From positions 1 to 37,670 of the IMG/VR virus record IMGVR_UViG_3300031519_000078: DNA of 37,670 nt. One strand, written 5' to 3'. This DNA comes from a virus (taxonomy: Duplodnaviria > Caudoviricetes). Of this stretch, positions 1-30,682 are shown in pieces (the stretch's first letter is position 1; each line of letters begins with the position of its first letter). The notes under the pieces are model-generated. The model ran no database searches. It worked only from the letters and a program-made list of their open reading frames with translations, and was not told where the DNA came from. Position numbers and translations under genes: made by a program.

Positions 1-84
1 CTTCAATTTTCATAAAACCACAATCAGAGGGTCAAAAGCCGATCATATATCGGCCAATCCAGAAAATAAACAGGAGTTTTAGCA

Positions 85-561
85 ATGAGTCAAGGCAGAA
101 AAGCAATCAGCAAAAGCCTAAAAATTGTACAGGGAACGCACAGGCCGACGCGGGACAATAAGCAGGCCCCGACAGTGGCCTCAGAAATTCCAGAGATGCC
201 AAAAGGCTTGAGCACTAGAGCTAAAAATTATTGGAAAGATTTAACCGAACTGTTGCATTCAATGGGTGTAATAACATTAGCAGATCAAGCCGCACTTGAA
301 ATGCTTTGTGAAACATACTCAGAATGGAAAAGTTTGTGTAGTGATATTCGAACAGTTAGAAAAGGAAAAAGTACGTACACAACAGTAACAGAAGAAGGCT
401 CTGAAATGATTAGGCCGCTACCTGAATTTAGCCAGCGAGCAGACGCGGCTAGACGTTTTCAAAGCGTTTTGTCAGAGTTTGGTTTAACGCCAGCAGCTCG
501 AAACAAAGTTAAAGCAATAGGCAGCAAAGACAGTGGAAGTGATCCGTGGGACGCTATCTAA
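85..561 (+). CDS. terS: Terminase small subunit (P27 family)
   Basis: N-terminal GRK...LK..QG and C-terminal EFGLTPAAR motifs; lies upstream of terL. Confidence 0.9.
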   Translation: MSQGRKAISKSLKIVQGTHRPTRDNKQAPTVASEIPEMPKGLSTRAKNYWKDLTELLHSMGVITLADQAALEMLCETYSEWKSLCSDIRTVRKGKSTYTTVTEEGSEMIRPLPEFSQRADAARRFQSVLSEFGLTPAARNKVKAIGSKDSGSDPWDAI

Positions 562-564
562 TTA

Positions 565-2247
565 ATGCGTGATTATGTAGGCATAGCTAACCAGTACATT
601 AGCGATGTATTAACCGGCACGGTGCTAGCCTGCAACTTTGTAAAATCCGCGTGTGAGAGACAAAGAGACGACCTAGAAAAACAGGGGTTTATTTATTCGT
701 TTGATGTTTCGAGAGCTTCGCACGTTTGCGCGTTTATTGAATTACTGACACACATAAAAGGCGAGTGGCGAGGGCGCAGGATAACGCTAGAACCCTGGCA
801 GATTTTCATACTAACAAGCGTGTTCGGGTGGATTGATTACGATGGCTATCGACGTTTTAAAACAGTTTATACCGAAGTGCCTAGAAAAAACGCTAAATCT
901 ACGTTATCAAGTGGAGTGGGTTTATATTGTTTGCTTGCAGATGGCGAGGGAGGGGCAGAGGTTTTCAGCGCGGCCACGACTAGAGATCAGGCGCGTTTGG
1001 TGTTCAATGATGCGGCGGCAATGGTTAACAATAACGCGGGATTACGCAAACGGTTCAACGCTCAGGTTATGGGTAAGGCGATACCGCACACGATCTTTAC
1101 TCAAGAAACAGGGAGCAGCTTTAAAGCGCTTTCACGCGACCAAGGAGGAAACTTAGACGGCTTAAACGTTCATTGTGGAATAATCGACGAGCTACACGCG
1201 CATAAAACGCGGGACGTTTTCGACGTAATAGAGACAGCAACGGGCGCAAGAAGGCAGCCGCTTATCTGGTTGATAACCACGGCTGGCTTTAATCGTGCTG
1301 GGATTTGCTACGAACAACGCACCTACTCAAGAAAAATCCTTGATGGATCGCACGAGGACCAAGAATACTTTTCTATAATTTACACGACAGATGAAAGTGA
1401 CGATTGGGCCGACCCGATCGCATGGGAAAAAGCCAATCCTAATTGGGGTATCTCAGTAAATCCACAAGACATAGAGCGCAAGGCGCGCAAGGCTTTAGAG
1501 CTGCCCAGTGCAACAAATAACTTCCTAACAAAGCATTTAAATATATGGGTTAACGCGGATTCGGCCTGGATGGATATGCGCAAGTGGGACGCACAAGCCG
1601 ATCATTCTTTGACGCTCGAACAGTTCGAAGGTGAACCGGTTTGGTTAGGCTTAGACCTTGCCAGCAAGATAGATATTGCGGCGCTTGTGTTGTTGTTTAT
1701 GCGGCGCATTGATGGAAAAACGCATTTCTATCTATTCGGTAAATACTGGCTACCAGAAGAAACAATAGAGAACAGCGACAACAGCCAGTACAGCGGGTGG
1801 GCAAGACAAGGGTTATTAAAAGAAACACCAGGCGCTATTATAGACTTAGACAGCATAGAGGAAGAAATTAAAGCCGAGTGCTCTATATATCAAGTAGAGG
1901 AATGTTGTTATGACCCCTTTCAGGCTACTCAACTAGCTACTCATTTAATGAATGACGGCCTTGAAATGGTCGAAGTAAGGGCAACAGTACAGAATTTTAG
2001 CGAGCCTATGAAAGAACTAGAGGCTTTAATACTCGACGGCAGGCTACACCACAACGGTGATCCTATCTTAACATGGATGATATCAAACGTAGTGTGTCAT
2101 ATCGACGCGAAAGAAAACATTTATCCACGAAAAGAGAACGAGCAAAACAAAATTGATGGCGTTGTGGCGGCAATAATGGCGCTAAATAGGGCGTTGTTTC
2201 ACGAAGAATCGAGAACAGACTACAGTGAAGGGCTTTTGGTCGTATGA
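565..2247 (+). CDS. terL: Terminase large subunit
   Basis: LEPWQ, Walker A VPRKNAKST, Walker B IIDELH, ITTAG, nuclease GLDLA and KIDGVVA motifs. Confidence 0.97.
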   Translation: MRDYVGIANQYISDVLTGTVLACNFVKSACERQRDDLEKQGFIYSFDVSRASHVCAFIELLTHIKGEWRGRRITLEPWQIFILTSVFGWIDYDGYRRFKTVYTEVPRKNAKSTLSSGVGLYCLLADGEGGAEVFSAATTRDQARLVFNDAAAMVNNNAGLRKRFNAQVMGKAIPHTIFTQETGSSFKALSRDQGGNLDGLNVHCGIIDELHAHKTRDVFDVIETATGARRQPLIWLITTAGFNRAGICYEQRTYSRKILDGSHEDQEYFSIIYTTDESDDWADPIAWEKANPNWGISVNPQDIERKARKALELPSATNNFLTKHLNIWVNADSAWMDMRKWDAQADHSLTLEQFEGEPVWLGLDLASKIDIAALVLLFMRRIDGKTHFYLFGKYWLPEETIENSDNSQYSGWARQGLLKETPGAIIDLDSIEEEIKAECSIYQVEECCYDPFQATQLATHLMNDGLEMVEVRATVQNFSEPMKELEALILDGRLHHNGDPILTWMISNVVCHIDAKENIYPRKENEQNKIDGVVAAIMALNRALFHEESRTDYSEGLLVV

Positions 2248-3782
2248 AGTATTTAAAAAATCTAGCTTCAAACATTGCTAACACTGTTGAGCGCCAATTC
2301 AGCGGATTGAAACACCCTGCGGGATGGCTAACAGATATATTAACCGGACCGGTTAATAACAGCGGTGTAACAGTTAACGAAAATACCGCCATGCAATTAG
2401 GCGCGGTATCCGCTGCCATTGGTGTAATATCAAACGGCGTGGCTACGCAATGCCTGAAACCGTTCAGGGTGACCGATGAGCGCACGGAGATTGCAAAAGA
2501 CCACCCAACTTACAGGCTACTAACAAGACGCGCTAACAAGAACATGAGCGCGTTTATTGTTATTAAGTTAATACAATCGCAGGCGCTCAGGTGGGGAAAT
2601 GGCTATGGGTGGATAGAGTTCAATAATGCCGGTTTTCCGGTTGCCATTTGGCCGTTGAACCCTGGCCTAACAACTCTATACTTGATGGAAGATAACACTG
2701 TAATCTATCAGACCACTCTACACAATCAGCAAACGGTCTACCTTGACGCTGAAGAAGTGATTCACATTAAAGCGCTTTCTAGTGATGGGTATTTAGGTAT
2801 CTCACCAATACGCCAACACGCGGAAGAGCTGGGAATTCAGATAGCGGCGCAAAACTTCGGCGCTGAATTCTTCGGCAATGGCGCAACGGTTCAGGGTATA
2901 TTAAAACATCCTGGCAAGCTTGACGAACCAGCACGGGCGGCCATTCGTAACAGTTGGGCCAGTGCTACCAGCGGCACCGGGAACCGGCACAAAACACCGG
3001 TATTACCCGATGGGATGGACTATACACGGGTAGGCATACCACCGGAAGAGGCGCAATTTTTACAGACACGGCAGTATGGCGATAGAAAAGTAGCGCAGAT
3101 TTACGACATACCGCCACACATGATAGGCGATTTAAAAGACGCGACCTTTTCAAACATCACAGAGGAAAGCATTAACTTTGTAAGGCGCACTTTATCACCG
3201 TGGTTTATCCAGTGGGAACAAGAAATAACATATAAATTACTGAGCACAAAAGAGCAAAACACCATTCACATTAAGTTTGATCGGTCCGATTTATTGCGAG
3301 GTACGCCAAAAGATGAGGCCGAGAAAGACGTGAAACTTGTTAATGCTGGAATCATTACGCGCAACGAAAGCCGCGAGTTGAGGGGCATGAACCCAATAGA
3401 CGGGCTTGATGAGGTTCTTGTGCCGCTTAACATGATCAAGCAAGACGAAGCCGAAAAACTCAAAACCGGCAGCGACTCAGAAGGCGATAGCGACGAGGAG
3501 CCAGAAGAAAAAAGTTTGATAGATGCCATGCCACTACTTACCCGATTCAGCGAGCTACTAGACAGCGCACAAAAGCGCGTAAGCCGCGACAAGTCACAAG
3601 CCACATGGTTAGGCGGTGGCGCTGAACGGTTCATACAGCGGCATTTAGGGCCGATTGCGAGCGCGTTAGGCACTGAATCATTGACGCAAACATTTACAGA
3701 ACAGTTTATTGACGCACAAAATCGCGGGATATTTTGCACAGAAGACACAATTTATAACACCCTGAAGGAGTTAACCAGCTAA
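2244..3782 (+). CDS. HK97-family portal protein with C-terminal extension
   Basis: WGNGY, EVIHIK, GISPI, AQFLQTR, IPPHMIG and TRNESR motifs. Confidence 0.95.
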   Translation: MKYLKNLASNIANTVERQFSGLKHPAGWLTDILTGPVNNSGVTVNENTAMQLGAVSAAIGVISNGVATQCLKPFRVTDERTEIAKDHPTYRLLTRRANKNMSAFIVIKLIQSQALRWGNGYGWIEFNNAGFPVAIWPLNPGLTTLYLMEDNTVIYQTTLHNQQTVYLDAEEVIHIKALSSDGYLGISPIRQHAEELGIQIAAQNFGAEFFGNGATVQGILKHPGKLDEPARAAIRNSWASATSGTGNRHKTPVLPDGMDYTRVGIPPEEAQFLQTRQYGDRKVAQIYDIPPHMIGDLKDATFSNITEESINFVRRTLSPWFIQWEQEITYKLLSTKEQNTIHIKFDRSDLLRGTPKDEAEKDVKLVNAGIITRNESRELRGMNPIDGLDEVLVPLNMIKQDEAEKLKTGSDSEGDSDEEPEEKSLIDAMPLLTRFSELLDSAQKRVSRDKSQATWLGGGAERFIQRHLGPIASALGTESLTQTFTEQFIDAQNRGIFCTEDTIYNTLKELTS

Positions 3783-4375
3783 TGAACATAGAAAGGCGCT
3801 TTTTTAATAGCGAAGTACGCGCAGGAGAGAGCAGGGTTACAGGCTACGGCTCAGTGTTTGAGAGCAAGTCTGAAGACTTAGGCGGGTTTGTCGAGATTAT
3901 AGCGCGTGGCGCGTTCGATGATAGGCTTGAAGATGACGTAAGAGCGCTTTTTAATCACGATTCAAGTCTGATACTAGGGCGCACGAAATCGGGAACGCTA
4001 GACCTTAGCATTGATGATAACGGTTTACGTTATGAAATTGATTTTCCAGATACTACCTACGCCAATGATTTGCAGGTGAGTATCAAGCGTGGCGATATAG
4101 ACCAAAGTAGTTTTTCTTTTTTAGTTGAAGAGGACGATTTCACAGAAGTAGACGGGACCATTGTTAGGACCATTAACAAAGTATCGAGGCTATTTGATGT
4201 TAGTCCAGTTACCTATCCCGCCTACCCAGATGCAACCGTGGGCCTTCGATCGCTAGAACAATACATTCAACGCAGAGACCAAAACCGAAACACACAAGCG
4301 AAAGCTAAAAGAATGCTAGAGGCCAATCTACGAAGCCGACAGCTAACACTTGCAGAAATAAGCCGCGTTCTATAG
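3782..4375 (+). CDS. HK97-family prohead protease
   Basis: GYGSVF, ALFNHD, SSFSF and DVSPVTYPAY motifs. Confidence 0.95.
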   Translation: MNIERRFFNSEVRAGESRVTGYGSVFESKSEDLGGFVEIIARGAFDDRLEDDVRALFNHDSSLILGRTKSGTLDLSIDDNGLRYEIDFPDTTYANDLQVSIKRGDIDQSSFSFLVEEDDFTEVDGTIVRTINKVSRLFDVSPVTYPAYPDATVGLRSLEQYIQRRDQNRNTQAKAKRMLEANLRSRQLTLAEISRVL

Positions 4376-4408
4376 AACGATTATTTCAGCACAACAGCGC
4401 ATTAATTG

Positions 4409-4434
4409 AGGCCGTATTAAGCGGCCTTTTTTTT
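4409..4434 (+). terminator. Hairpin plus U-tract between the protease and capsid genes
   Basis: AGGCCG-TATTAAG-CGGCCT followed by a T run. Confidence 0.65.
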
Positions 4435-4473
4435 GTGCGCAATAAATGAAGACCATTAATAGAGGTTTATATT

Positions 4474-5685
4474 ATGAAACTACAGGATCTACTACAGGAA
4501 CGCGGCCAAGTTGCTACGCAAATGCGCGCAATGCACAAGGCAGCAGAAGACGAAGAACGCGGGTTTTCTTCAGATGAGCAAAGCAAATGGGAAGAAATGA
4601 CCACAACCCTAGAGGGCTTTGATAAGCGGATCGAGACCAGCAAACGCGCCAGCTCATTAGATGAGTTTACGCAAGAGCAACGCGAAGAGAAGCGGTTAGG
4701 CAAGCAGGAGCAAGGCAAGGAGCAGAGCAAAGAAGAGCGAGCGCGTGAAGCGTTTGGCGCGCTCATTCGATCCGATCAACCCGGCTCCTCTGGTCTCAGT
4801 GCTGAACATCAGGCCGCGTTAGTCCGTGCTCAGTCAGTCGGCACCAATTCAGCGGGTGGCTATCTTGTTCCTACTGACCTACAAAAAACCATTATTGAAA
4901 AAATGGTGCAATTTGGCGGCATTAGAAACCTGGCTACAGTTATTAGCACCGACACAGGCAACACGTTAGATATCCCAACCAACGACGACACAGGCAACAG
5001 TGGGGCTATTCTAGCGGAAAACGCACAAGACAGTGAACAAGATGTAGCGTTTGGTAGCGCGGCACTGGGAGCCTATAAATACACTTCTAAAATTATCCGC
5101 GTACCCATCGAGCTAATGCAAGATAGCGCGTTTAATCTAGAGGCGTTTTTAATCAAAAAATTCGGGGAGCGTTTAGGCCGAGCAACAGCGGCACACTATG
5201 CAGCGGGAACAGGTTCATCACAGCCGCAAGGCTTGAATCAATGCACAAGCGGCAAAACAGCGGCAGCAGTGGCAGCGGTAACGTATATAGAAATGCTTGA
5301 TTTAAAGCACTCAGTTGATCCAGCTTATAGAATCGGGGCTAATTGGGTATTTAATGATACAACTCTATTGGCGCTTAAAAAGCTACTTGATGGAGACAGC
5401 CGTCCATTATGGCAACCGGATATTTCAGGCGTAACGCCAGCAACGATTGACGGCGACACCTACGCCATCGACCAAGGTTTGCCAAACATGGCGGCAAGCG
5501 CTAAATCAATTGTTTACGGTGATATATCCGGCCTTTGGATTCGTGACGTTATGGGAATGGCGATCACTCGCATGGTTGAGCGTTATGCTGATTATCATCA
5601 GGTTGGATTTGTTGCAATTATGCGCACCGATTCAAAGATAATTGACGGAAACGGGATGCGCGCCCTAACAATGGCAGCGTCTTAA
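4474..5685 (+). CDS. Major capsid protein (HK97 fold, N-terminal delta domain)
   Basis: Coiled-coil N-terminus; GGYLVP, ELMQDS, GTGSSQPQG and PLWQP motifs. Confidence 0.95.
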   Translation: MKLQDLLQERGQVATQMRAMHKAAEDEERGFSSDEQSKWEEMTTTLEGFDKRIETSKRASSLDEFTQEQREEKRLGKQEQGKEQSKEERAREAFGALIRSDQPGSSGLSAEHQAALVRAQSVGTNSAGGYLVPTDLQKTIIEKMVQFGGIRNLATVISTDTGNTLDIPTNDDTGNSGAILAENAQDSEQDVAFGSAALGAYKYTSKIIRVPIELMQDSAFNLEAFLIKKFGERLGRATAAHYAAGTGSSQPQGLNQCTSGKTAAAVAAVTYIEMLDLKHSVDPAYRIGANWVFNDTTLLALKKLLDGDSRPLWQPDISGVTPATIDGDTYAIDQGLPNMAASAKSIVYGDISGLWIRDVMGMAITRMVERYADYHQVGFVAIMRTDSKIIDGNGMRALTMAAS

Positions 5686-5741
5686 TAGTTTTTTTTAATG
5701 GTGTGTGTGAGCGTTTAGGCGCTCACTCTAAAGGGGTTGTT

Positions 5742-5975
5742 ATGTTAATTAAAATGCTGGTAGGCATGAGTGGGCCACGAATCACGAGAAAACCGGGGGA
5801 GGTGCTAGAGGTCGGAGACAATGAGGGTAAATCGCTAATTCTTGGCGGTTCAGCGGTCCCAGTAAAGCAAGGCACAGAAAAGGCGGCATTAAATGAGAAT
5901 GAAACTGATAACGCAGCCACTCAGCGAGCCGGTAAGCGTCTCGGAATTAAAAACACAGCTAAGAATAGAGCATAG
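5742..5975 (+). CDS. Small head-region protein
   Basis: RBS AAGGGG before ATG 5742; usual position after the capsid gene. Confidence 0.55.
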   Translation: MLIKMLVGMSGPRITRKPGEVLEVGDNEGKSLILGGSAVPVKQGTEKAALNENETDNAATQRAGKRLGIKNTAKNRA

Positions 5976-6447
5976 TGAAGATGACGCCTATTTATTTGGT
6001 TTAATCGTAGCGGCTCGACAGTACGCAGAAAAAGCAACAGGTAACGTTTTCATTACTCAAACATGGGACATTCCTTTTACTGATTTTAGTTCGTTAGAGA
6101 TCCCTATTAGGCCGATCAAATCAATTGAATCTATCACCTACGTAGACACAGACGGCAACAACCAGACACTGAGCGATTCAGTCTATTTCCTTGATGATTA
6201 CGGTTTTAGAGCACACATTAATCTAGGCTATGGCGAGCAATGGCCAAGCATCAGGGACCAGAAAAACGCTGTTATTGTTCGGGTAGTGGCGGGTGCAAAT
6301 CAAGCACCTCAATCTATAAAACACGCGGTTATTCTAATGGCGGCACACTGGTACGAGAACAGAGAAGAAACCAGCATGGACAAACTCAAGCCTATTCCTT
6401 TGGGCGCTGAACGGCTGCTAACACTTGACGAAAATAGGTACTTTTAA
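5893..6447 (+). CDS. Head-tail connector (gp6-like)
   Basis: EPVSVSELKTQLRIE and AHWYENRE motifs. Confidence 0.9.
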   Translation: MRMKLITQPLSEPVSVSELKTQLRIEHSEDDAYLFGLIVAARQYAEKATGNVFITQTWDIPFTDFSSLEIPIRPIKSIESITYVDTDGNNQTLSDSVYFLDDYGFRAHINLGYGEQWPSIRDQKNAVIVRVVAGANQAPQSIKHAVILMAAHWYENREETSMDKLKPIPLGAERLLTLDENRYF

Positions 6448-6773
6448 TGAGAGCGGGAAAGCTTAGAAAAAGGGTACAGGTTCAAGCGCTACAAAACACA
6501 GTTGATAACTTTGGCTCACTTGTTGAAGCGTGGGCCACTGCCTTCTCACGCTGGGCAGATGTTAGACCTATCAGCGGTAAAGAGCCATACACTAACGAGC
6601 AGCATTTAGCCGAACTAAATACAGTTGTTGAGCTTCGATATGATAGCCAGTCTGCAACCATTACGCCTAAACATAGAATTAAATACGGAGAACGAATTCT
6701 AGAGATTGAAAGCGTTGTGAACATTGGGGAGCGTAACAAAGAATTAATTTTGCTTTGTTACGAATATGTTTAA
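6447..6773 (+). CDS. Head closure protein / head-tail adaptor (SPP1 gp16-like)
   Basis: MRAGKLRKRV and WADVRPISGKE motifs. Confidence 0.9.
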   Translation: MRAGKLRKRVQVQALQNTVDNFGSLVEAWATAFSRWADVRPISGKEPYTNEQHLAELNTVVELRYDSQSATITPKHRIKYGERILEIESVVNIGERNKELILLCYEYV

Positions 6774-7330
6774 TGGATTTTAATATTCATGTAAAAGGCA
6801 TGAAAGAGCTAGAAGACAAGCTAATTAAATTAGGCGCTGAAGTAGGGCACAAGGAGCTTAAACGCGGACTTATGGCGGCAAGCCTTCCGACAGTTCAACG
6901 AGCCAAAGCACTAACAAAGCCAAGCTTTAAAGACGCTATACAGCGAAGAAGCCATAGAACCGGCAAATTAAAAGTTAACAAGATAGGGCAGGCAGCCGGA
7001 GGAAATCAAGCGGCCGGGGTATCAATCATAGTAAACAGAAAGAGCGCACCTTACGCGCATATGTTCGAGGCCGGCACAGTTGAAAGATACACAAAAGGGA
7101 AAAACAAACACAGTACGCCAGGTGGTGCTAAATCTGGACAAGGAAAAATAAAAGGGCGCAAGGTTAAAAACCCAGGCGGCAAAGGTAAAAAAGGGTACAG
7201 AGGAGCCTATAGGGGCAAAGTTGAGAAAGAGCCGTTTTTTATGGTCGCATGGGAATCAGAAGGCGGCACTAAGGCGGTAGACGCATTTAAGAAAAAACTA
7301 TCAAATCGAATTAAGAAGCTTACAAAATGA
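6773..7330 (+). CDS. HK97 gp10-like tail completion protein
   Basis: VKGMKELEDKL, YAHMFEAGT and PFF motifs; start probably at ATG 6773, overlapping the previous stop. Confidence 0.85.
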   Translation: MDFNIHVKGMKELEDKLIKLGAEVGHKELKRGLMAASLPTVQRAKALTKPSFKDAIQRRSHRTGKLKVNKIGQAAGGNQAAGVSIIVNRKSAPYAHMFEAGTVERYTKGKNKHSTPGGAKSGQGKIKGRKVKNPGGKGKKGYRGAYRGKVEKEPFFMVAWESEGGTKAVDAFKKKLSNRIKKLTK

Positions 7331-7692
7331 CTACAAGCACAATACACCAGGCATTAATTGATCACGCTGGTTTAGGCGCGTTGGTGGGTGATCGAATATA
7401 CAGAGGCCGACTACCTCAGAGCCCTACATACCCTTTAATAATGTTTGTGTGCGCTGAAGAGCCGGAGAACTTATTAATTGGTGAATCTGAATCAGAGCAT
7501 CACATGATTCAATTAGAGTGCTATGCAACAAGCTACACGCTTTTAGATAGCATCAAAGAGCAGCTAAAAAGGGCGCTTTATGATTCATCTGATTTTGTCG
7601 CAATATGTACCGCAATTTCAGATGATCAATACCAAGACGAGCAAAAAAATTATTCTATTTTCTTAGACTTTTCAATCTGGTTTCAACCATAA
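7327..7692 (+). CDS. Tail terminator protein (DUF3168-like)
   Basis: LVGDRIY...PQ..TYP motif; synteny. Confidence 0.8.
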   Translation: MTTSTIHQALIDHAGLGALVGDRIYRGRLPQSPTYPLIMFVCAEEPENLLIGESESEHHMIQLECYATSYTLLDSIKEQLKRALYDSSDFVAICTAISDDQYQDEQKNYSIFLDFSIWFQP

Positions 7693-7708
7693 CAAAGAGG
7701 TGATTTAA

Positions 7709-8125
7709 ATGACTGCTATTAATTCGCAAGGCGTAGTGCTGAAACGTGGCGATGGTGCTGACCCTGAAGTATTCACGGCTATCGGAGAGCTAACAGGGAT
7801 TGATGGTGTTGGTAGTGGTACATCGGCAGAGATTGACGTTACTACACTTTCATCTACCGCCAAAGAATTCATTCTAGGCTTGAAAGATGAGGGTGAGGTG
7901 ACTTTAACCATGAACCTAGACACAGCCAACGCACCACAAACAGGGCTACGCACGGACAGAGATAACAAGACCCTTAGAAACTTTGAACTAACATTAACAG
8001 ACAGCGGACCCACTGTTATAACGTTCAGCGCTTATGTTAAAAACTTTCCACTGGGAATATCAGTAGACTCACAGATAACCCTATCACTAGCGTTACGAAT
8101 TAGCGGACCGGTTACGTGGGCATAG
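7709..8125 (+). CDS. Major tail tube protein
   Basis: EIDVTTLSSTAKEFILGLKDEGE motif of lambda-like tube proteins. Confidence 0.9.
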   Translation: MTAINSQGVVLKRGDGADPEVFTAIGELTGIDGVGSGTSAEIDVTTLSSTAKEFILGLKDEGEVTLTMNLDTANAPQTGLRTDRDNKTLRNFELTLTDSGPTVITFSAYVKNFPLGISVDSQITLSLALRISGPVTWA

Positions 8126-8132
8126 GTAAAGC

Positions 8133-8498
8133 ATGAAACAATTAACACTTAAAGACATTCTAAACGTAGAAGACGTAAAAACGAAGCGCGTAGAGCTGCC
8201 TAAATGGGGCGGCTTTGTAATTATTCAGCAGATGACCGCCAAGGCGCGAGACGCTTACGAGTTAAGCCTATTAAAGACAGATGAAAGCGGAAAGTCACAA
8301 CGAGACTTAGAAAATATTCGAGCAAAAATTGTGGCTGCTTGTGTTCTTGATCCAGGCGGAGAACTGATGTTCAAAACACCAGATCACGTTAAAGCGTTAG
8401 GTAACAAGAACTCTGAAGTTGTTGATTTTCTATATTCGCAGTGCCAAGAGTTTAACGCTATAAGTAACGAAGATATCGAGGAACTAGCGGGAAACTAA
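8133..8498 (+). CDS. Tail assembly chaperone (gpG-like)
   Basis: Lies between tube and tape measure genes; ends in slippery G GGA AAC. Confidence 0.85.
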   Translation: MKQLTLKDILNVEDVKTKRVELPKWGGFVIIQQMTAKARDAYELSLLKTDESGKSQRDLENIRAKIVAACVLDPGGELMFKTPDHVKALGNKNSEVVDFLYSQCQEFNAISNEDIEELAGN

Positions 8499-8815
8499 AA
8501 CACCGACCAACTAGGCTATTCTTGCATAGATACGCGTGCAAGATTGGTTGGCCGGTCCCTTTGTTAGAGCAAATAATGACAATGGATGACATACGCGAAG
8601 CGATGGCTTACGCGAAGCTTGAACCCTGGCACGAAGAGCGCGCAGATTTGAGGGCGGGAATAATTGCCAGCGTAATAGCTAACGCGAACCGTTCAAGCGG
8701 TTCAAAAGCCTTTAAGGCGTCCGATTTTATGCCTAAATATTCACAGGATGAACCGGACAATAAACCCTTAGTTGATAAAATTAAAAAGGTGTTAATCAGT
8801 GGCAACTCTGGCTAG
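8492..8815 (+). CDS. Tail assembly chaperone frameshift extension (gpT-like)
   Basis: The -1 frame is open from the slippery site (KLKHRPTRLFLHRY...RADLRAGIIAS). Confidence 0.8.
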   Translation, partial: KLKHRPTRLFLHRYACKIGWPVPLLEQIMTMDDIREAMAYAKLEPWHEERADLRAGIIASVIANANRSSGSKAFKASDFMPKYSQDEPDNKPLVDKIKKVLISGNSG

Positions 8816-10679
8816 TCTCGCAATAGATTTGACAGCAAATAGCGCTAAGATGTTAACGGAGCTTAGAAAGGTCAATAAGCACCTTGATACCTTTGAAAAA
8901 AAAGCAAAAGCCGTTTCTAAAAATGCTAAAATTGCCCTTTCTGGAATAATTACAGCTGGGACCACTACCCTATTAGTGGATAGTGTATTACAGGTATCGG
9001 GAAGCTTTGAGACATTGCAGGCTTCACTAGAAACTACGTTTGGTAGCCAGAAAAAAGCGGAGCTACAATTCAAAAAACTAACAGAGTTTGCGTCAAAAAC
9101 GCCACTAACAATACAGGAGGTAACAGACGCAAGTATAAAAATGAAAGCCTTTGGGCTTGACCCTTCTATTGATTCAATGGAAAGCATGATAAACACCTCC
9201 GTTACACTAGGAAAATCTCTTGATCAATTTGTAGAGGCTATAGCGGATGCTGGGAGAGGACAGTTTGAGCGGTTAAACGAGTTCGGTATAGCAGCCAGAA
9301 AAAACGGTGAATCTGTTTCTTTTACTTTTCAGGGTGTAACTAAAAGTGTATCTAATAGCTCAGTTGATATTATTCAATATTTAAACGACATTGGAAATAA
9401 CCAGTTTGCAGGAGCACTAAAAAAGCAAGCCGAAACCTTGCCGGGTATTCTTTCAACGTTAGGCGGTGCGGTTGACTTGTTAGCCGTTAAGTTTTCAGAA
9501 AAAAGCGGTTTGGCTAAATTTGTAAAAGAGTCATCGCAAGCTATAACCAGTTTAATAAATAGAATATCAACCGGTAGACCGGCAATAGCAGAACTAAAAG
9601 CAGAGCTAGACAGGTTTCAAGAAGGCGGCACAGGTAGCGGAAGGAACAAGGGTGAAGCGCTCGAAAATAATAGGCTGGAACGAATAAAAGAAATTAATAA
9701 GCAGATTCTAGAAATACAAGCAGAGTCTGGGAATATAGAAAGCGCACAAAAACTATTAGATATGATTGATTCCAGCATATCTTCAGTTGAAGAAAAAACC
9801 AGTGGAGCAGACCGATTCTCAGGAAGAGGAAGGAACAAGAGTGAAAACCCAGACTTTACGCAGCTAGACAAACTTAACGAAGAAAGAGACGCCTATATTG
9901 AGCTTATAGAAACTATAGAGGGTGAGAAAGCGGACGCGACAATAGCCGCTCAAGCGGCCAATGATGCGAGAATAGCGCAAGCAAAAGCAGAGCGGCAGGA
10001 GGAGCTAGGAAATTCTGTTGAGAAGTTAACAGAAAAATACGCCACAGAACAAGAATTGTTAGTATCAAAATTCGAGGAAGAGACAAAACTTTTAGAGCAG
10101 TATTATTCAGGCAAGGAAGGCATGGAGCAAAAGCACGCTGACACACTAAGAAGAATAAAAGATAAGTACTTTTTAGATGTCAATAAACTATACGCGAAAG
10201 GCGGGAAGGATGAGGTTAAAACAGAGAAAAAAACATTCGGCGAATTAATCGCGGCCTCAGCTGCTGGAAGTAGTAACCTATTTGACATAACAAAGAACCT
10301 GATTCTTGACAAGGCCAAGGTTCTACAGCAACAGGCCATATTAGGGGCCTATACGGCTGGTAATGAACAGGGTGGGCCTTACGTGGGCGCGGCTTATGCT
10401 TTGATAGCAGCGGCGGCTAGTACCGCGATAATATCGAAGATATCGGGCGCGGGTGGTGGCGGTGGTGGTGGTGGCTTGCCTTCAGTGCCTGAACCAGGCG
10501 ACGACGATCCACCGATTCCAGGGCTAGACGATGCAGCAAACGATGAACCCAGAAACAAAACCGTTATATTAGACATAACAGGCATAGACGATGAGGCGCT
10601 ATTAACAAAAGGGCAAGTAAGAAAAATAGTAGATCAAATAAACGACGAACGTGAAGCCAATGTGAGGATAGTAATATAA
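8799..10679 (+). CDS. Tape measure protein
   Basis: MATLASLAIDLTAN start, FASKTP motif, helical Ala/Gly-rich sequence; synteny. Confidence 0.9.
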   Translation: MATLASLAIDLTANSAKMLTELRKVNKHLDTFEKKAKAVSKNAKIALSGIITAGTTTLLVDSVLQVSGSFETLQASLETTFGSQKKAELQFKKLTEFASKTPLTIQEVTDASIKMKAFGLDPSIDSMESMINTSVTLGKSLDQFVEAIADAGRGQFERLNEFGIAARKNGESVSFTFQGVTKSVSNSSVDIIQYLNDIGNNQFAGALKKQAETLPGILSTLGGAVDLLAVKFSEKSGLAKFVKESSQAITSLINRISTGRPAIAELKAELDRFQEGGTGSGRNKGEALENNRLERIKEINKQILEIQAESGNIESAQKLLDMIDSSISSVEEKTSGADRFSGRGRNKSENPDFTQLDKLNEERDAYIELIETIEGEKADATIAAQAANDARIAQAKAERQEELGNSVEKLTEKYATEQELLVSKFEEETKLLEQYYSGKEGMEQKHADTLRRIKDKYFLDVNKLYAKGGKDEVKTEKKTFGELIAASAAGSSNLFDITKNLILDKAKVLQQQAILGAYTAGNEQGGPYVGAAYALIAAAASTAIISKISGAGGGGGGGGLPSVPEPGDDDPPIPGLDDAANDEPRNKTVILDITGIDDEALLTKGQVRKIVDQINDEREANVRIVI

Positions 10680-13029: not shown

Positions 13030-14022
13030 ATGTCCTACAGTAATATTACAAACCCAGAGGTCGCGGCTGACGCAGCGCTAACAACCGGTTTAATGACAAA
13101 GTTACGTGATAACCCCGAGGCGATAGCTCTAGGTTTGAGCGGTGCCACTAGAGTAACAGAGGCCGGTCTAGAAACGGGCGCAGTTCATCAGAACCAACTA
13201 GACACAACAACGCAAGATATAGACTTGACGGCTTCGGTTAATAACGCCTCATCTTACGGCACTTTTTTAATGACTTCGGCCCAATATTTTTTAGGCTTTA
13301 AATATGGCTCGCCTGATACTTCTAGTTCTTCTGCGTCCGTTTATTGCAGCGTGCAAACCGGTAGGGCACAAACTAATTTTAATACTGAGAATTGCTATGG
13401 TGAAGTAGGCGTGGCAGATACGGGTGCCTACACAGACCTAACGGTTGAATCTGAATGGCGCTATGTAACAGCTTCAGGGCCGTTTGATTTGGGAGACGGT
13501 GAGATCCCAACATTTATATTTGTATTAATGAGAGATGGCAAGCCGCGCATGGTGTCAGCTTGTGATATCCCACCGTGGGCATACAATGGACCAACAGAGA
13601 TAACGCCTACCCGTGTTTTTAGATCGGAAAATGGATCATTAAAAAAATATAAAACAGTCGTTAATATTAACGATGATGGAGAGATAGAGCGGAAGGAGGT
13701 AGAAATTAACATGGAAATGAAGAATAGAGACATTAATCTACTTCCGCAACCTTTCATTAAAGAGCCAGGTGATGAGGTGATATTAATTGATCCTGTTGAA
13801 ACATTACAGCTTAAAGAGCTTAGAACGGGCGGTTTAAAATTTAGCAGCCTTTTATTTAAAGATTATATTCGTTTGGACAATACGCCAATCAAAAGAAAAT
13901 CACCCAACGGCGTAAGACCAACACGTTACAAATGGAAAAACACACGGCGCAAAGCTGGCGAAATGATGGCAGATAGGCGGCAAGGCGTGGGGGCGTTTTC
14001 TAAAAAAATAGTTGACGTGTAA
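13030..14022 (+). CDS. Putative minor tail protein
   Basis: Last gene of the tail operon; N-terminal LMTKLRDN-type anchor motif. Confidence 0.5.
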   Translation: MSYSNITNPEVAADAALTTGLMTKLRDNPEAIALGLSGATRVTEAGLETGAVHQNQLDTTTQDIDLTASVNNASSYGTFLMTSAQYFLGFKYGSPDTSSSSASVYCSVQTGRAQTNFNTENCYGEVGVADTGAYTDLTVESEWRYVTASGPFDLGDGEIPTFIFVLMRDGKPRMVSACDIPPWAYNGPTEITPTRVFRSENGSLKKYKTVVNINDDGEIERKEVEINMEMKNRDINLLPQPFIKEPGDEVILIDPVETLQLKELRTGGLKFSSLLFKDYIRLDNTPIKRKSPNGVRPTRYKWKNTRRKAGEMMADRRQGVGAFSKKIVDV

Positions 14023-14040
14023 GCGCGAGGGCGCTATTAT
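14012..14040 (+). promoter_or_regulatory. sigma70 promoter of the CRISPR-like mini-array
   Basis: TTGACG-17 bp-TATTAT; inverted repeat AGCGC-GAGG-GCGCT in the spacer. Confidence 0.75.
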
Positions 14041-14054
14041 ATTTTCAGTTTGTT

Positions 14055-14170
14055 GTATACTGCCGGATAGGCAGCTTAGAAATATTAGTGACGAACTTAT
14101 GAGTATACTGCTGTACAAGCAGCTTAGGAATATTAATCGCAGACTTTGTTGTCAACTGCTGAACAAGCAG
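14055..14170 (+). CRISPR. Type I-F-like mini-array (3 repeats, two 20-nt spacers), no cas genes
   Basis: Repeats GTATACTGCCGGATAGGCAGCTTAGAAA (14055-82), GTATACTGCTGTACAAGCAGCTTAGGAA (14103-30) and GTCAACTGCTGAACAAGCAG (14151-70) resemble the I-F consensus GTTCACTGCCGTACAGGCAGCTTAGAAA; 48-nt period. Confidence 0.85.
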
Positions 14171-14197
14171 AAAAAAGGGGGCTTAATTGCCCCTTTT
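14171..14197. terminator. Probable bidirectional intrinsic terminator
   Basis: AAAAAAGGGGGC-TTAATT-GCCCCTTTT between convergent transcription units. Confidence 0.7.
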
Positions 14198-14455
14198 CTA
14201 TTCTAGATCTATCAGCTTTTCGCTGTATAAGCCATCAATAAAAGCATCCAGCGCCTTACGCGGCATAGGTCTATATGCTGGACTCTGGTTGCCCGTCTTA
14301 GTAGACCATGATTTGACTTTAGAGCGGGTGACGTTTTTTACTCCTTGCTTTTCAAAAATATCTAATACCAGCTCAATATCTTTGTGAATTCTCAACAACA
14401 AAAGAAGATGCCTAAAACAGTCGTTTGTGGGTATAAATTCCATTATAGTTAGCAC
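14198..14455 (-). CDS. DUF1456/YehS-like protein
   Basis: ND.FR....L...VTRSKVKSW...YRPMP...LDAFIDGL resembles a single YehS repeat. Confidence 0.55.
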   Translation of the reverse strand: MLTIMEFIPTNDCFRHLLLLLRIHKDIELVLDIFEKQGVKNVTRSKVKSWSTKTGNQSPAYRPMPRKALDAFIDGLYSEKLIDLE

Positions 14456-14974: not shown

Positions 14975-15003
14975 ATAATAACCTCTCGACCGGTCACAGT
15001 CAA
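14975..15003 (-). promoter_or_regulatory. sigma70 promoter with GACCGGTCAC operator
   Basis: TTGACT-17 bp-TATTAT; operator at 14988-14997. Confidence 0.75.
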
Positions 15004-15020
15004 GAGGTATTAATAGGTTT

Positions 15021-15491
15021 TTACAATTCGCTAGAATTTACTACTGTATAAAATCCATCAGCGTAACCACCAAGCTCAAACCATTCACCATTTAACTCCA
15101 TATCTCTAGAGAATCTTTCATGATCAATATAGAATTCCAAGTGTTCCGGAACTTCCATAACCTCATTCATATATTCAACAGCGTAATCTTTTGCCCTTTG
15201 ATCTACTATGTTAACGTTTTCATAGTTGTCAAATGCATATTCCAGAGGATAATTTAAAGTTTCAGCCAGAAAAAGAACCTTTCTAATCGTGTCCTGGTCA
15301 GCATCCGCAAACTCATTAAAAAATCGTTCTATCAGTCTGCAATCATCCGCAACTAGGTTACCTATTGCGTTACCTTCTAATAAGTGAATCTCATGATCAT
15401 GATCTTGATCAATGTTATTGTCTAGTGTTTCGATATCGCTGAAACTGAAAGAAGTGCTGCTGTATAAATTTACTGCTAAAAATGTACCCAT
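15021..15491 (-). CDS. ardA: ArdA-like antirestriction protein (DNA mimic)
   Basis: Very acidic; C-terminal EVPEHLEFYIDHERFSRDMELNG matches the ArdA motif; RBS GGAG before ATG 15491. Confidence 0.8.
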   Translation of the reverse strand: MGTFLAVNLYSSTSFSFSDIETLDNNIDQDHDHEIHLLEGNAIGNLVADDCRLIERFFNEFADADQDTIRKVLFLAETLNYPLEYAFDNYENVNIVDQRAKDYAVEYMNEVMEVPEHLEFYIDHERFSRDMELNGEWFELGGYADGFYTVVNSSEL

Positions 15492-15561
15492 GATGATGTT
15501 CTCCAATGTAGAGTTTAACGTTTGTTTGCGTTGCTTGGCTTGTGCCCCTCAACGTGTAACT

Positions 15562-15590
15562 ATATTAACAATGGACCGGTCACGCGTCAA
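15562..15590 (-). promoter_or_regulatory. ardA promoter with GACCGGTCAC operator
   Basis: TTGACG-17 bp-TAATAT; operator at 15574-15583. Confidence 0.75.
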
Positions 15591-15636
15591 CAACTATATA
15601 TAGAAATAATGAAATTAATTTAATCTCAATTAACTC

Positions 15637-15665
15637 TTGACAATTGACCGGTCACAGTCTAATAT
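15637..15665 (+). promoter_or_regulatory. Divergent promoter with TGACCGGTCA operator
   Basis: TTGACA-17 bp-TAATAT; operator at 15645-15655. Confidence 0.8.
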
Positions 15666-15675
15666 AGGTACATGT

Positions 15676-15765
15676 TGAGGCAGCACACACACAGAGAAAA
15701 GGGGGTATATCTCATGTCTGAGTAATGAAAACGTTACATGAGGCAGCACACACAGAGAAAAGGGG
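15676..15765 (+). repeat. Direct repeat of a leader/RBS element
   Basis: TGAGGCAGCACACAC(AC)AGAGAAAAGGGG at 15676 and 15739. Confidence 0.85.
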
Positions 15766-15771
15766 CAATGT

Positions 15772-15927
15772 ATGACAATGAGCGCAGCAGAGCGCAAGCG
15801 CTCAGAGCGTGAGCGCAAAGTGAAAGCGGGAATGGTCAGGTTTGAGGGGTGGACATATCCCGAGCTAAAAGACAAGATTAAAAAGTATGCAGACAAAACA
15901 AACGCAGCTTATGAAAATCAAAAGTAG
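15772..15927 (+). CDS. 51-aa basic protein, candidate RHH-like regulator
   Basis: MTMSAAERKRSERERKVKAGMVRFEGWTYPELKDKIKKYADKTNAAYENQK; RBS AAGGGG; absent from the ORF track. Confidence 0.7.
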   Translation: MTMSAAERKRSERERKVKAGMVRFEGWTYPELKDKIKKYADKTNAAYENQK

Positions 15928-16369
15928 AAAGGAGGTAGAGCAATATTTAAACAGTGATAAAATAGAGTGCTTAGAGTGCGGGAAGCGCTTCAAGTTTCTA
16001 CCCGTGCATATAAACAGAACGCACGGGCTAAGCGCTCCAGAGTACCGACAGCGCTACAATCTGCCAGCGGGAACACCTTTGGCAGGGTTAGAGTACAGGC
16101 GCGCACAGAGCGACAAATTGAAGCGCATGATTGATGCTGGGACACTCACACATGACCACCTTCCTAATGCTGTCGAAGCAGCCAGGAAATCAGAGCGGCC
16201 GAGGCGCACAGATTATGACCTGGCTGAACAGTCAGAAAGAGCGGCTAGCATAGAGCGCGATCAATTAGAGCTAGGATCTCGTCGAAAGGATGGCAGGGAC
16301 GCAGACAGAGCGCGAGAGTATCAGCGTGAGTATCGAACGCGGGAGAAAAGGGAGAAAAATAAAAAGTAA
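15887..16369 (+). CDS. Ros/MucR-family zinc-finger protein
   Basis: IECLECGKRFKFL..HI..THGLS..EYR..YNLP..TPL motif. Confidence 0.85.
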   Translation: MQTKQTQLMKIKSRKEVEQYLNSDKIECLECGKRFKFLPVHINRTHGLSAPEYRQRYNLPAGTPLAGLEYRRAQSDKLKRMIDAGTLTHDHLPNAVEAARKSERPRRTDYDLAEQSERAASIERDQLELGSRRKDGRDADRAREYQREYRTREKREKNKK

Positions 16370-16613
16370 GTGGTCCAAAAGTGGTCCCTTTATTTTTTAG
16401 GCAAGGGACTTTTTAGTGGGTGTTTGGCTATAAGCCTTGCTGCGTATGGTGCCCAGGGCCGGAATCGAACCGGCACGACCGTTAAGCCGAGGAATTTTAA
16501 GTCCCTTGTGCGTGTCCCATCACCCCTACAGGCCCCGAAAACACTAGCGCCTGCATTAGACTATAGTACCTTTTAGCGCCTATTTGGACCACCAAGTGGT
16601 CCAAAAGTGGTCC
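16368..16613. other. attP with integrase arm-type sites
   Basis: AAGTGGTCCAAAAGTGGTCC at 16368 and 16594, plus inverted TTTGGACCAC at 16583, flanking the tRNA fragment next to int. Confidence 0.85.
16447..16510 (-). other. attP core: 3' part of tRNA-Leu(UAA)
   Basis: Minus strand CACAAGGGACTTAAAATTCCTCGGCTTAACGGTCGTGCCGGTTCGATTCCGGCCCTGGGCACCA has anticodon arm, long variable arm, T arm and CCA; 5' end and D arm absent. Confidence 0.9.
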
Positions 16614-17546
16614 TTAGTTTTCGAGGACTTTATCAATATCAATGCTTGAACCATGGGCATATCGGCTTGTAACAGATAGCGAACTATGGCCTAAAATATC
16701 TCGCAGCACTGAAGCGGAGACGCCTTTTCTCATCAGTAGGGTGGCGTAACTATGGCGCAAGTCATGCAGCCTAATCTCTGGCCTATTGATCAGTTTTCTA
16801 GCAATCTCAAAATCACGTCGGAGCTTAGCTTCAGTTAAATCAAACGGTAAGCTCTGGCATATTGGCCATAAATTTCTAGGCACTGGGACAGTTCGACGCT
16901 TTCCACTCTTTGATTGATTTACAGTCAAATAACCATCCTGGAAATCAGTGCAATGAATTGCAAGCAATTCGCTACGCCTCAACCCTGTATAAGCGGCCAG
17001 CTTTATAAAGTCGGCTGTTACTGGCGATCTACAAGCAGCTATCAGCTCACCAATCTCGCTGGTGGTTAAATAATGATATCTTGCTGTGTTGCGTTCAGAG
17101 AGTAATGATATTTTTTCTGCCAGCGGAAAGTCTAATAGTCCCCACTCTCGATATGCAAGATTGAGCACGCGACGCACACAAGCAAGCCGCCTATTTACTG
17201 TCTGATTGCTCAAGCCGTTAGAGATAAAAACCTCTTTCATGTGAGTTGCATATTCTGGTACATCGGTCAAGTTTACATCTTTTAGATAGATAAGCGTGTT
17301 TCTTATGTGAGAGTGCATTGATTGAGGCGCGCCATTTTTTCCCCATTTTAAGCACGCCTCACCATATGTACAAGCTGGTGCTTTACCCAAAAACGCATTG
17401 TTTTCGGTTTGGTGTAGCCGTCTTTTTATTTCAAGCTCTATCTGTTCGGCTTCTTTCCTGGTGCCCCGAACAGTTTTTTTAATTCGTTGTCCATCGATTT
17501 GAACGCGGACGATATAAACACCATCTTTCTGTTGTTTAATTGACAT
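16614..17546 (-). CDS. int: Tyrosine integrase
   Basis: YTGLRRSE, HDLRH, LGH and RYAH catalytic motifs. Confidence 0.95.
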   Translation of the reverse strand: MSIKQQKDGVYIVRVQIDGQRIKKTVRGTRKEAEQIELEIKRRLHQTENNAFLGKAPACTYGEACLKWGKNGAPQSMHSHIRNTLIYLKDVNLTDVPEYATHMKEVFISNGLSNQTVNRRLACVRRVLNLAYREWGLLDFPLAEKISLLSERNTARYHYLTTSEIGELIAACRSPVTADFIKLAAYTGLRRSELLAIHCTDFQDGYLTVNQSKSGKRRTVPVPRNLWPICQSLPFDLTEAKLRRDFEIARKLINRPEIRLHDLRHSYATLLMRKGVSASVLRDILGHSSLSVTSRYAHGSSIDIDKVLEN

Positions 17547-23577: not shown

Positions 23578-24113
23578 TAAATTGTAAAGTTGACTTGATC
23601 GGTGAGATGGGTGATACTTTTTGGGCGTTGGCAAAATCCAGCGTTCGGACTGGACCTCCGCAACTTCGAAGGCGCACAAGTCGCCATAGCTTTAGTCAGC
23701 GGCTTTTTTTGTGCGCGTTATCCCTTGTTATGGTGAGGGGAGAGGGCAGCGCTTGCGCTGGCCGTATCCTTCGAAGCGGTAGGTCCAACCCGATTCCCTC
23801 GCCACCTTTAGATTGGACCCTTTGCGTGGCGAGAAAACCGCCACATTCGAAGGTAACAATCATGAATATCCTATCTGCAATAGTGCGCGGCTCCTGCTCG
23901 CCTACGTTTTTACTTTCCAAATCTGATCAATCCAATCATTCAGCATCAAGCCTATTCCATCATGCGGCGCTTTGGCCGTTCTCGTTTTCAGAGCGTGGGC
24001 GTATTTTGGAAGCGTTTGCAAATCTCGATAAAAACGAATCAATCATAATTCGGTCTACAAATGGTCTTATAACGTGGGGTGTTATTTCATCTCTCGATAT
24101 GGAGGTGGCTTAG
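23574..24113 (+). CDS. Ash-family ORF, with an internal icd-position start at 23862
   Basis: AKS...RLFLCA...MV...G..NP pattern typical of ash ORFs that overlap c4 RNAs. Confidence 0.6.
   Translation: MINCKVDLIGEMGDTFWALAKSSVRTGPPQLRRRTSRHSFSQRLFLCALSLVMVRGEGSACAGRILRSGRSNPIPSPPLDWTLCVARKPPHSKVTIMNILSAIVRGSCSPTFLLSKSDQSNHSASSLFHHAALWPFSFSERGRILEAFANLDKNESIIIRSTNGLITWGVISSLDMEVA
23590..23618 (+). promoter_or_regulatory. Promoter of the c4/ash module
   Basis: TTGACT-17 bp-GATACT. Confidence 0.65.
23731..23804 (+). ncRNA. C4/CI-like antisense RNA
   Basis: Closing stem TGGTGAGGG/CCCTCGCCA; internal CCTTCGAA and GGTCCAA complementary to flanking TTCGAAGG and TGGACC targets. Confidence 0.75.
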
Positions 24114-27737: not shown

Positions 27738-27926
27738 ATGGCGTTATGTTTAACAAGGAATAGCGGTGAGGCCATTATCATTGGCGGCCACACTCGCATT
27801 GAGGTTAGGGAGATGAAGACTAATAGAGGTAAGTGCTATCAGCTTATCATCGACGCGCCAAAAGAGGTGACAGTACATAGGGAGGAGATTCAAAATCGAA
27901 TCGACGAGCAACGAGAAGGAGAATGA
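27738..27926 (+). CDS. csrA: CsrA/RsmA-like protein
   Basis: L.LTR..GE.I.IG...I.APKEV.VHREEI. Confidence 0.85.
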   Translation: MALCLTRNSGEAIIIGGHTRIEVREMKTNRGKCYQLIIDAPKEVTVHREEIQNRIDEQREGE

Positions 27927-27945: not shown

Positions 27946-28317
27946 GTGAGCGCAAAACAGAAAGAGCGTGAGAGGCTAGCGCGAGAAATGGTAGAGTTCG
28001 TGGCGGCGGGCGGTCAAGTGCAGGTGTTGCCTTGCTCGCTTGATACAAAGGGACGGGAAATATCAGAGTACAATGGACACGTTTACAAGTTGGATGACGG
28101 GAGGAAAAAGGCGAACGTTTCGCGCCACATGGTGGCAAGATCTAACATTGCTAAATGCCAAGTTATATACAATGAGCTGACCAGCAAAGAATGTATAATT
28201 GACGACCCGCGACAAACACAAGCGAAAGTGAAGCGACTAATGAAACAACGGCATGGTTTAGACTTCACTGATACAACTATACAGCGCTACATTAGGGAGG
28301 TCAGAAAGTCTATATAA
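27946..28317 (+). CDS. Protein with a SutA-like RNAP-binding N-terminus
   Basis: AKQKERERLAREMVEFVAAGGQVQVL. Confidence 0.6.
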   Translation: MSAKQKERERLAREMVEFVAAGGQVQVLPCSLDTKGREISEYNGHVYKLDDGRKKANVSRHMVARSNIAKCQVIYNELTSKECIIDDPRQTQAKVKRLMKQRHGLDFTDTTIQRYIREVRKSI

Positions 28318-30496: not shown

Positions 30497-30682
30497 ATGG
30501 AGTTAGAAAAGTGTAAGCGGACAGGGTGCAGCGTTCGCGGAACAAAGCAAAAAGGGTGCTGTGATGATGTTGATGTGCTGCTTGAATGTTCGGCCTGCGG
30601 TTTGAAGGATGGACCCTACCCGCTCAAAGGCGTTGATGATATTTGGCAAGATGAAAAAAGAATTAGGGGCATTGATAAATAA
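30497..30682 (+). CDS. Small Cys-rich protein
   Basis: CxxxxC, CC and CxxC; RBS GAGG. Confidence 0.5.
   Translation: MELEKCKRTGCSVRGTKQKGCCDDVDVLLECSACGLKDGPYPLKGVDDIWQDEKRIRGIDK

Follow-up and report, generated by a model that had tools for sequence, protein, structure and literature searches.

The window, the whole stretch of 37.7 kb of DNA that was analysed, represents a temperate tailed phage, whose head and tail genes were recognised by reading of the translations and accompany an integrase, a repressor, Cro-like genes, a DnaB-like helicase and a Q-like antiterminator. A compact unit with a predicted promoter, three hairpin repeats of the I-F type, two spacer-like guides and a terminator hairpin (Table 1) is flanked by ORF 13030-14022, the final rightward gene of the tail block (read as a tail gene from its position and without a family match), and by a convergent leftward cluster. 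The leftward cluster contains a DUF1456-like gene, an HNH-associated gene and an ArdA-like gene. A search with homologue queries found neither AcrIF24 nor AcrIF11 among the ORFs of the window.

Table 1. Features of the mini-array and its surroundings, as positions in the window (sister, the related phage described in the text).
Feature	Position	Strand	Remarks
Promoter, predicted sigma-70	14012..14040	+	-35 TTGACG (14012-17), 17 nt, -10 TATTAT (14035-40); -35 inside last codons of ORF 13030-14022
Repeat 1 (R1), full 28-nt I-F repeat	14055..14082	+	Stem CTGCC/GGCAG, handle CTTAGAAA; Rfam CRISPR-DR4 37.5 bits
Spacer-like guide S1, 20 nt	14083..14102	+	19/20 identical in sister
Repeat 2 (R2), full 28 nt	14103..14130	+	Stem CTGCT/AGCAG, handle CTTAGGAA; CRISPR-DR4 33.1 bits
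Spacer-like guide S2, 20 nt	14131..14150	+	11/20 identical to S1; missing from sister
Repeat 3 (R3), stem-loop without handle	14151..14170	+	Stem CTGCT/AGCAG; stops at stem base
Intrinsic terminator hairpin	14171..14199	.	Common to unit and convergent gene; within tract 98/104 identical to sister
Predicted mature RNA 1, 48 nt (handle + S1 + hairpin)	14075..14122	+	Predicted from Cas6f cut site; 3' hairpin folds
Predicted mature RNA 2, 48 nt	14123..14170	+	Predicted likewise; 3' hairpin folds
DUF1456-like gene, 81 aa	14198..14443	-	Last gene of leftward cluster; 78% identical in sister
ArdA-like anti-restriction gene	15021..15506	-	Pfam ArdA 34.1 bits, cut-off 27; corresponding sister cluster holds acrIF11
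tRNA-Leu(TAA)-like attP and tyrosine integrase	16447..17546	-	Temperate-phage context

A preliminary description of this DNA had reported a promoter, three I-F repeats with a 48-nt period and a terminator, all of which are present where it placed them. The repeat starts are spaced by exactly 48 nt and the loops of R1, R2 and R3 are all of 5 nt; the compensated change in the stem between R1 and the two later repeats, and the truncation of R3 at its stem base, were also confirmed. With the Rfam model CRISPR-DR4, R1 scores above the gathering threshold of 35 bits and R2 just below it, and R3 (14.2 bits) is a stem-only remnant. These are the only such hairpins in the window, and a periodic pair or triple of them arose in none of 500 dinucleotide-chain shuffles. 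The promoter scores 10/12, and a scan of 2.2 kb found eight promoter-type sites against 5.8 by chance, so that the match alone is not above chance; the call is better backed by the sister phage, in which -35 and -10 hexamers stand at the corresponding place around a different intervening sequence. The terminator hairpin (14174-14197; -14.7 kcal/mol, z -2.67) was returned by the scan on the minus strand only. An A-run precedes it and TTTTCT succeeds it, and it is therefore read as bidirectional. In the fold of the whole transcript (z -2.28) all three hairpins and the terminator form, and both predicted 48-nt products retain the 3' hairpin, with an overall stability that in neither exceeds that of shuffles. 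As had been proposed, no cas gene was recognised in the window, either with a Csy3 profile (0/1), by Pfam on 39 ORFs, or in the ORFs of positions 1-10679 read as translations.

The runs that contain window DNA are labelled as brine and seawater metagenomes, and two of them, X1 and X2, are possible sources of it. Runs of two studies, among them X2 from a second study, contain contigs that match the two-spacer form without a difference, and a 151-nt record of run X3, from a third study, spans 14002-14152; the two-spacer form is therefore no assembly artefact. Run X1 also yielded 31-nt contigs with three differences from R1, and that sample therefore holds other I-F repeats.

Several further features of the phage were observed. 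The motif GACCGGTCAC occurs three times (14988, 15574, 15646; regions 14975-15008 and 15547-15680); its copies lie at a promoter-like site facing leftward and within an inverted repeat of 44 nt, which is next to a basic ORF of 51 aa (15772-15927). In the sister phage there are an ORF 43% identical to the latter and a variant of the motif. These features possibly reflect Aca-like autoregulation of the anti-defence cluster. In the interval that separates the Cro-like gene from the replication genes there is a match to C4 antisense RNA (23726-23809; 51.8 bits, gathering 45). Two large ORFs at 30682-36539 encode an 893-aa PcRGLX-like and a 1058-aa Ig/TIG-domain protein, which are unusual for a small temperate phage, and regulators of host type are represented by MucR/Ros-like, CsrA-like and weak SutA RNAP-binding-domain matches (15887-16369, 27738-27926, 27946-28317).

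A scan of viral sequences with handle and seed returned seven loci, comprising two ordinary 32-nt arrays, four chance matches and one true relative, the sister phage IMGVR_UViG_3300031569_000012 (locus L032), whose unit has S1 alone. The search for homologous units in related phages that the preliminary description had recommended has in this way produced one sister with a one-guide unit. Relative to the window, S2 and R3 are missing from it as a 49-nt gap, and its first repeat has a compensated C-G to T-A change and a 4-nt loop. This 4-nt-loop repeat was considered as a host marker and rejected, given that it occurs in host units and in two unrelated phages. Both promoter hexamers are kept at the same distance, while the sequence between them has largely diverged. 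The one-guide and two-guide forms co-occur in runs X1 and X2. S1 in the sister falls inside a near-identical tract (50/51 and 98/104), and its conservation is therefore not independent evidence of selection.

The genes next to the sister unit differ from those of the window, except for the DUF1456-like gene and the small basic protein (78% and 43%). The second gene from the one-guide unit (L032:2821-3261) encodes an AcrIF11 homologue, with 137.9 bits to NF052490 (cut-off 50) and an E-value of 5e-4 against AcrF11 of the PDB. The same cluster encodes an HTH protein with a weak Aca2-like match (E 0.011), and it has two further ORFs, of 241 and 95 aa, which are unassigned and are candidates for new anti-defence genes. 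AcrIF11 is reported to modify N250 of Csy1 and to block DNA binding and CRISPRi (bioRxiv 10.1101/2024.08.26.609590), and in P. aeruginosa it is described as confined to CreTA-negative genomes (bioRxiv 10.64898/2026.06.02.729485). A repressing guide in the sister should thus be cancelled by AcrIF11, unless the two are kept apart by timing or by the length of the complex. This tension favours a cas promoter over a toxin target, or temporal separation, or resistance of short complexes. A limited literature check met no link between AcrIF11 and such guides, and the main text of Liu et al. (bioRxiv 10.1101/2024.10.29.618823) makes no mention of AcrIF11.

The two guides of the window share 11/20 positions (p 0.016 for unrelated sequences), and positions 1-5 are identical. 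In I-F complexes, positions 6, 12 and 18 of the spacer do not pair. All three are among the nine differences between S1 and S2, a placement with p 0.0055 in a register test made on a single spacer pair that was picked after inspection. Such a pattern would result if the seed stayed constant while non-pairing positions drifted, and is what guides that pair with DNA should show. From its sequence, S2 is likely a diverged duplicate of S1. Related hosts probably have variants of a single promoter, of which each guide would address one.

Units of the same anatomy occur in other viruses and in bacteria. A generic pattern of handle, 17-23 nt and repeat stem matched 43 viral loci, several of them redundant, with a paired upstream hairpin in 24 of the 43; the spacers of these 24 are of 18-21 nt. 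One of these loci adjoins AcrIF24 (E 9e-49), which is the published setting. Near the other viral units, 130 ORFs were listed, of which 90 were scanned with NCBIfam after exclusion of redundant loci, of the sister and of some short ORFs; none matched an Acr, in a scan that missed the AcrIF24 detected by the separate search. S2 did not recur as a guide in other viruses, where none of 19 pattern matches has a repeat upstream. No I-F unit was seen in 13 terminase-related loci, where the compared DNA mostly ends before the equivalent position, and BLAST found no close relative either of the window unit among annotated phages and plasmids or of another unit among E. coli genomes. One family of one-guide 20-nt I-F units (L013, L018, L023, L027, L030, L034) was observed, each immediately preceded by an ORF of some 208 aa that is tail-fibre-assembly-like by reading and has no NCBIfam match; in three of these loci a short Rpn-like gene then follows.

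For bacteria, 62 cas8f loci were compared: a set of 400 genomes supplied 27 and a set of 97 supplied 5, while 30 were taken out of 40 detected in a set of 301. Fourteen of them hold a unit of the same anatomy, with spacers of 15-31 nt that measure 15-20 nt in nine; among I-F regulatory guides, a spacer of 20 nt is therefore nothing unusual. All 14 have a CC-flanked site in their own locus, with 12-15 matches at non-6n positions among the first 18, and in the six units that were inspected this site lies between guide and cas8f. In 10/14 units, spacer and target are on the same strand and 74-98 nt apart, and such guides may regulate their own promoter too. An additional CreR-like unit with a 33-nt spacer was noticed in the bacterial cas8f locus L319.

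The target of the window guides was sought in the same 62 cas8f loci (1.5 kb on each side), where the best site matched 11/17 positions against shuffled-spacer means of 11.2 and 11.4 (60 shuffles each). A metagenome search with CC and S1 alone (17 fixed bases) gave 31 loci, which were screened for I-F repeats and whose neighbours were judged by eye: 26 lie inside ORFs, five are intergenic and none has I-F repeats. Handle and seed matched 47 loci in GTDB contigs, of which 16 are ordinary arrays by eye and the others lack the hairpin, with no host regulator among them. A joint S1/S2 target pattern matched 59 of 401 genomes, with a reversed control at least as frequent (as read from the table rather than tallied), and was no more frequent than the control in five csy1-bearing genomes and a genus of four genomes. 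A site about 6 kb from a csy1 match in one genome (G033) was rejected, this csy1 being a broken orphan among unrelated genes. One metagenome match (L174:2501-2522) combines CC with 18/20 matches to S1 (19/20 to the sister guide); an extended -10-like sequence follows it immediately, and shortly after that a gammaproteobacterial metG. As a target it was judged a chance match, given that four of the 31 matches reach 18/20 where about three are expected by estimate; the MetG of this locus is merely 64-71% identical to MetG of four candidate genomes. Among viruses, three of 119 S1 matches (from 43/64 parts of the collection) are CC-flanked, the best with 16/20, and S2 gave six matches, all inside ORFs and with 15-16/20. 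Within the window there are three one-mismatch self-sites against 1.11 expected, and at least three occurred in 11/100 shuffles; the sister has none. The best CC-flanked self seed in the window is of 8 nt, inside a 626-aa ORF.

These target blanks are weak and do not show absence, because none of the genomes searched could be assigned as the host. The attP resembles gammaproteobacterial tRNA-Leu genes, up to 97% and none exact, so a host was not assigned: its 45-mer had no exact match in GTDB contigs, the best tRNA-Leu matches in a 400-genome sample of the class reach 95-97%, and in one order 19/97 genomes match within three mismatches, the best with one. I-F effector genes were found in 0/3, 0/5, 0/32, 5/97 and 0/36 genomes of the candidate host groups.

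The unit is best explained, with a probability of roughly 0.7, as a cas-less phage mini-array of the CracrIF type, in which short Csy complexes would repress a host cas or creT promoter and compete for Csy. Its anatomy, repeat identity, one-guide sister and anti-defence neighbourhood are observed; its transcription, processing, stoichiometry and repression we infer by analogy with CracrIF1 and CracrIF2. Cleavage of the transcript by Cas6f of the host would release two RNAs of 48 nt, each of which would build a short Csy complex with four Cas7f. Such a complex would bind a CC-flanked site in the host cas or creT promoter without cutting, and the 48-nt RNAs would also compete with immune crRNAs for Csy proteins. 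Two predicted RNAs of this length, each two Cas7f short, agree with the measurement for CracrIF2, the most similar case on record, whose 21-nt spacer and 49-nt product are reported to assemble mainly four Csy3 (Liu et al., bioRxiv 10.1101/2024.10.29.618823).

An unlikely alternative is a pure decoy, whose processed RNAs would tie up Csy in short non-cutting complexes irrespective of the spacer sequence, so that a non-targeting crRNA mimic would achieve an effect like that of a Racr. It would accommodate the target not found in metagenome, GTDB and cas8f-locus searches and the AcrIF11 of the sister, which would disable DNA binding anyway, and a non-targeting crRNA has been reported to lower I-F interference (Camara-Wilpert et al., PMC10651486). 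However, the S1/S2 differences fit the I-F pairing register, targets are present for 14/14 host units of the same anatomy, and in the V-A and I-E Cracrs tested, spacer mutation is reported to have abolished the anti-CRISPR effect (bioRxiv 10.1101/2024.10.29.618823). The preliminary description had offered both options. The register and the host counterparts with targets speak more for guides that bind DNA and repress than for pure sequestration. Published Cracrs are described as doing both (bioRxiv 10.1101/2024.10.29.618823).

It is highly unlikely that the guides have their targets elsewhere than in CRISPR loci, whether in a promoter of some other host defence or of a housekeeping gene, in a competing phage or in the phage's own DNA. 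The L174 site upstream of metG is at chance level, the CC-flanked viral matches are no better than those given above, and the self-sites are equalled in shuffles and missing from the sister, even though the window neighbour is ArdA-like rather than a known Acr and viral mini-arrays aimed at other viruses have been described (Shmakov et al., bioRxiv 10.1101/2023.03.03.530964). An inactive relic of a captured host regulator would likewise leave no target to be found, but this is extremely unlikely in view of three intact stems including a compensated pair, promoter hexamers kept in two phages despite the diverged sequence between them, and the existence of both one-guide and two-guide forms.

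The CracrIF-type reading can be extended to a guide module that works without AcrIF24 and with interchangeable anti-defence cargo. In this distinctly unlikely elaboration, the four-Cas7f complex would resist ADP-ribosylation in the sister; next to ArdA, the gene silenced by the guides may be a non-CRISPR defence or guard gene under CRISPR supervision, and not cas; and the array would grow from one guide to two by duplication. If true, the sister would be a second case of length-based discrimination, with a short complex resistant to AcrIF11. The acrIF11 link raises the question of whether short Csy complexes escape AcrIF11. The phage pair offers a clean natural example of array growth, and phage I-F regulatory guides are extended to an uncultured, brine-associated gammaproteobacterial phage lineage without acrIF24, in which an acrIF24-baited search would therefore miss the unit.

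Among known systems, RacrIF1 consists of one solitary repeat. It is reported to act through an upstream product of 70-76 nt, which binds Cas6f and Cas7f only, and to remain functional when the handle is altered (Camara-Wilpert et al., 2023, PMC10651486). Like RacrIF1-3, the window unit is a phage-encoded mimic of an I-F repeat with its own predicted promoter and would be a Cas6f substrate that competes for Cas proteins. Unlike a Racr, it has three repeats at a 48-nt period, each predicted product carries a 5' handle and a 3' hairpin, and rules of the SRUFinder type set such arrays aside. The intact handles of both R1 and R2 count for guides over a RacrIF1-like action and, by analogy, argue against a Racr-type Cas6f-Cas7f subcomplex without Cas5f and Cas8f. 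Canonical or inter-viral I-F mini-arrays have 32-nt spacers and full viral protospacers, whereas the spacers here are of 20 nt and the best CC-flanked viral match is 16/20. The earlier view that the unit is neither a solitary Racr nor an ordinary mini-array is borne out by its three repeats and short spacers.

Host I-F CreR/CreA mini-arrays are described as having a first repeat with a handle and a last one reduced to the hairpin (Shmakov et al., bioRxiv 10.1101/2023.03.03.530964), an arrangement which the window unit shares, and CreA1 of P. aeruginosa is reported with a 20-nt spacer and a 48-nt product (bioRxiv 10.64898/2026.06.02.729485). However, CreR/CreA lie inside the cas locus beside their target, while the window unit lies in a phage, with two guides and no nearby target.

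CracrIF arrays have reported spacers of 17-21 nt (median 19), products measured at 46 and 49 nt for CracrIF1 and CracrIF2, complexes with four Csy3, and a combination of promoter repression and Csy competition (Liu et al., bioRxiv 10.1101/2024.10.29.618823). The window unit differs from their setting in that its phage has no acrIF24, the adjacent cargo being an ArdA-like gene in the window and AcrIF11 in the sister, and in that neither a host CreR/CreA spacer with at least nine PAM-proximal matches nor a CC-flanked cas or creT promoter match was found in the 62 cas8f loci, 31 metagenome matches and 47 genome matches. The acrIF24 link of Cracrs is itself reported as frequent and not required (21/58 in the first screen), and more than one spacer is reported in 76/221 acrIF24-linked cracr genes (bioRxiv 10.1101/2024.10.29.618823). 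The novelty that the preliminary description had implied is thus not supported: short I-F phage arrays with several spacers are already described, the mechanism class is published, the unit is not new in kind, and it or the sister unit may already be in Tables S2-S3 of Liu et al. Like CracrIF, the window unit is phage-borne and outside any cas locus, with I-F repeat-like hairpins and a 5' handle, spacers of 20 and 20 nt within the reported range and predicted 48-nt products, and like Cracr arrays it combines several related guides with an anti-defence neighbourhood. By this analogy, it probably works like, and is, a CracrIF array.
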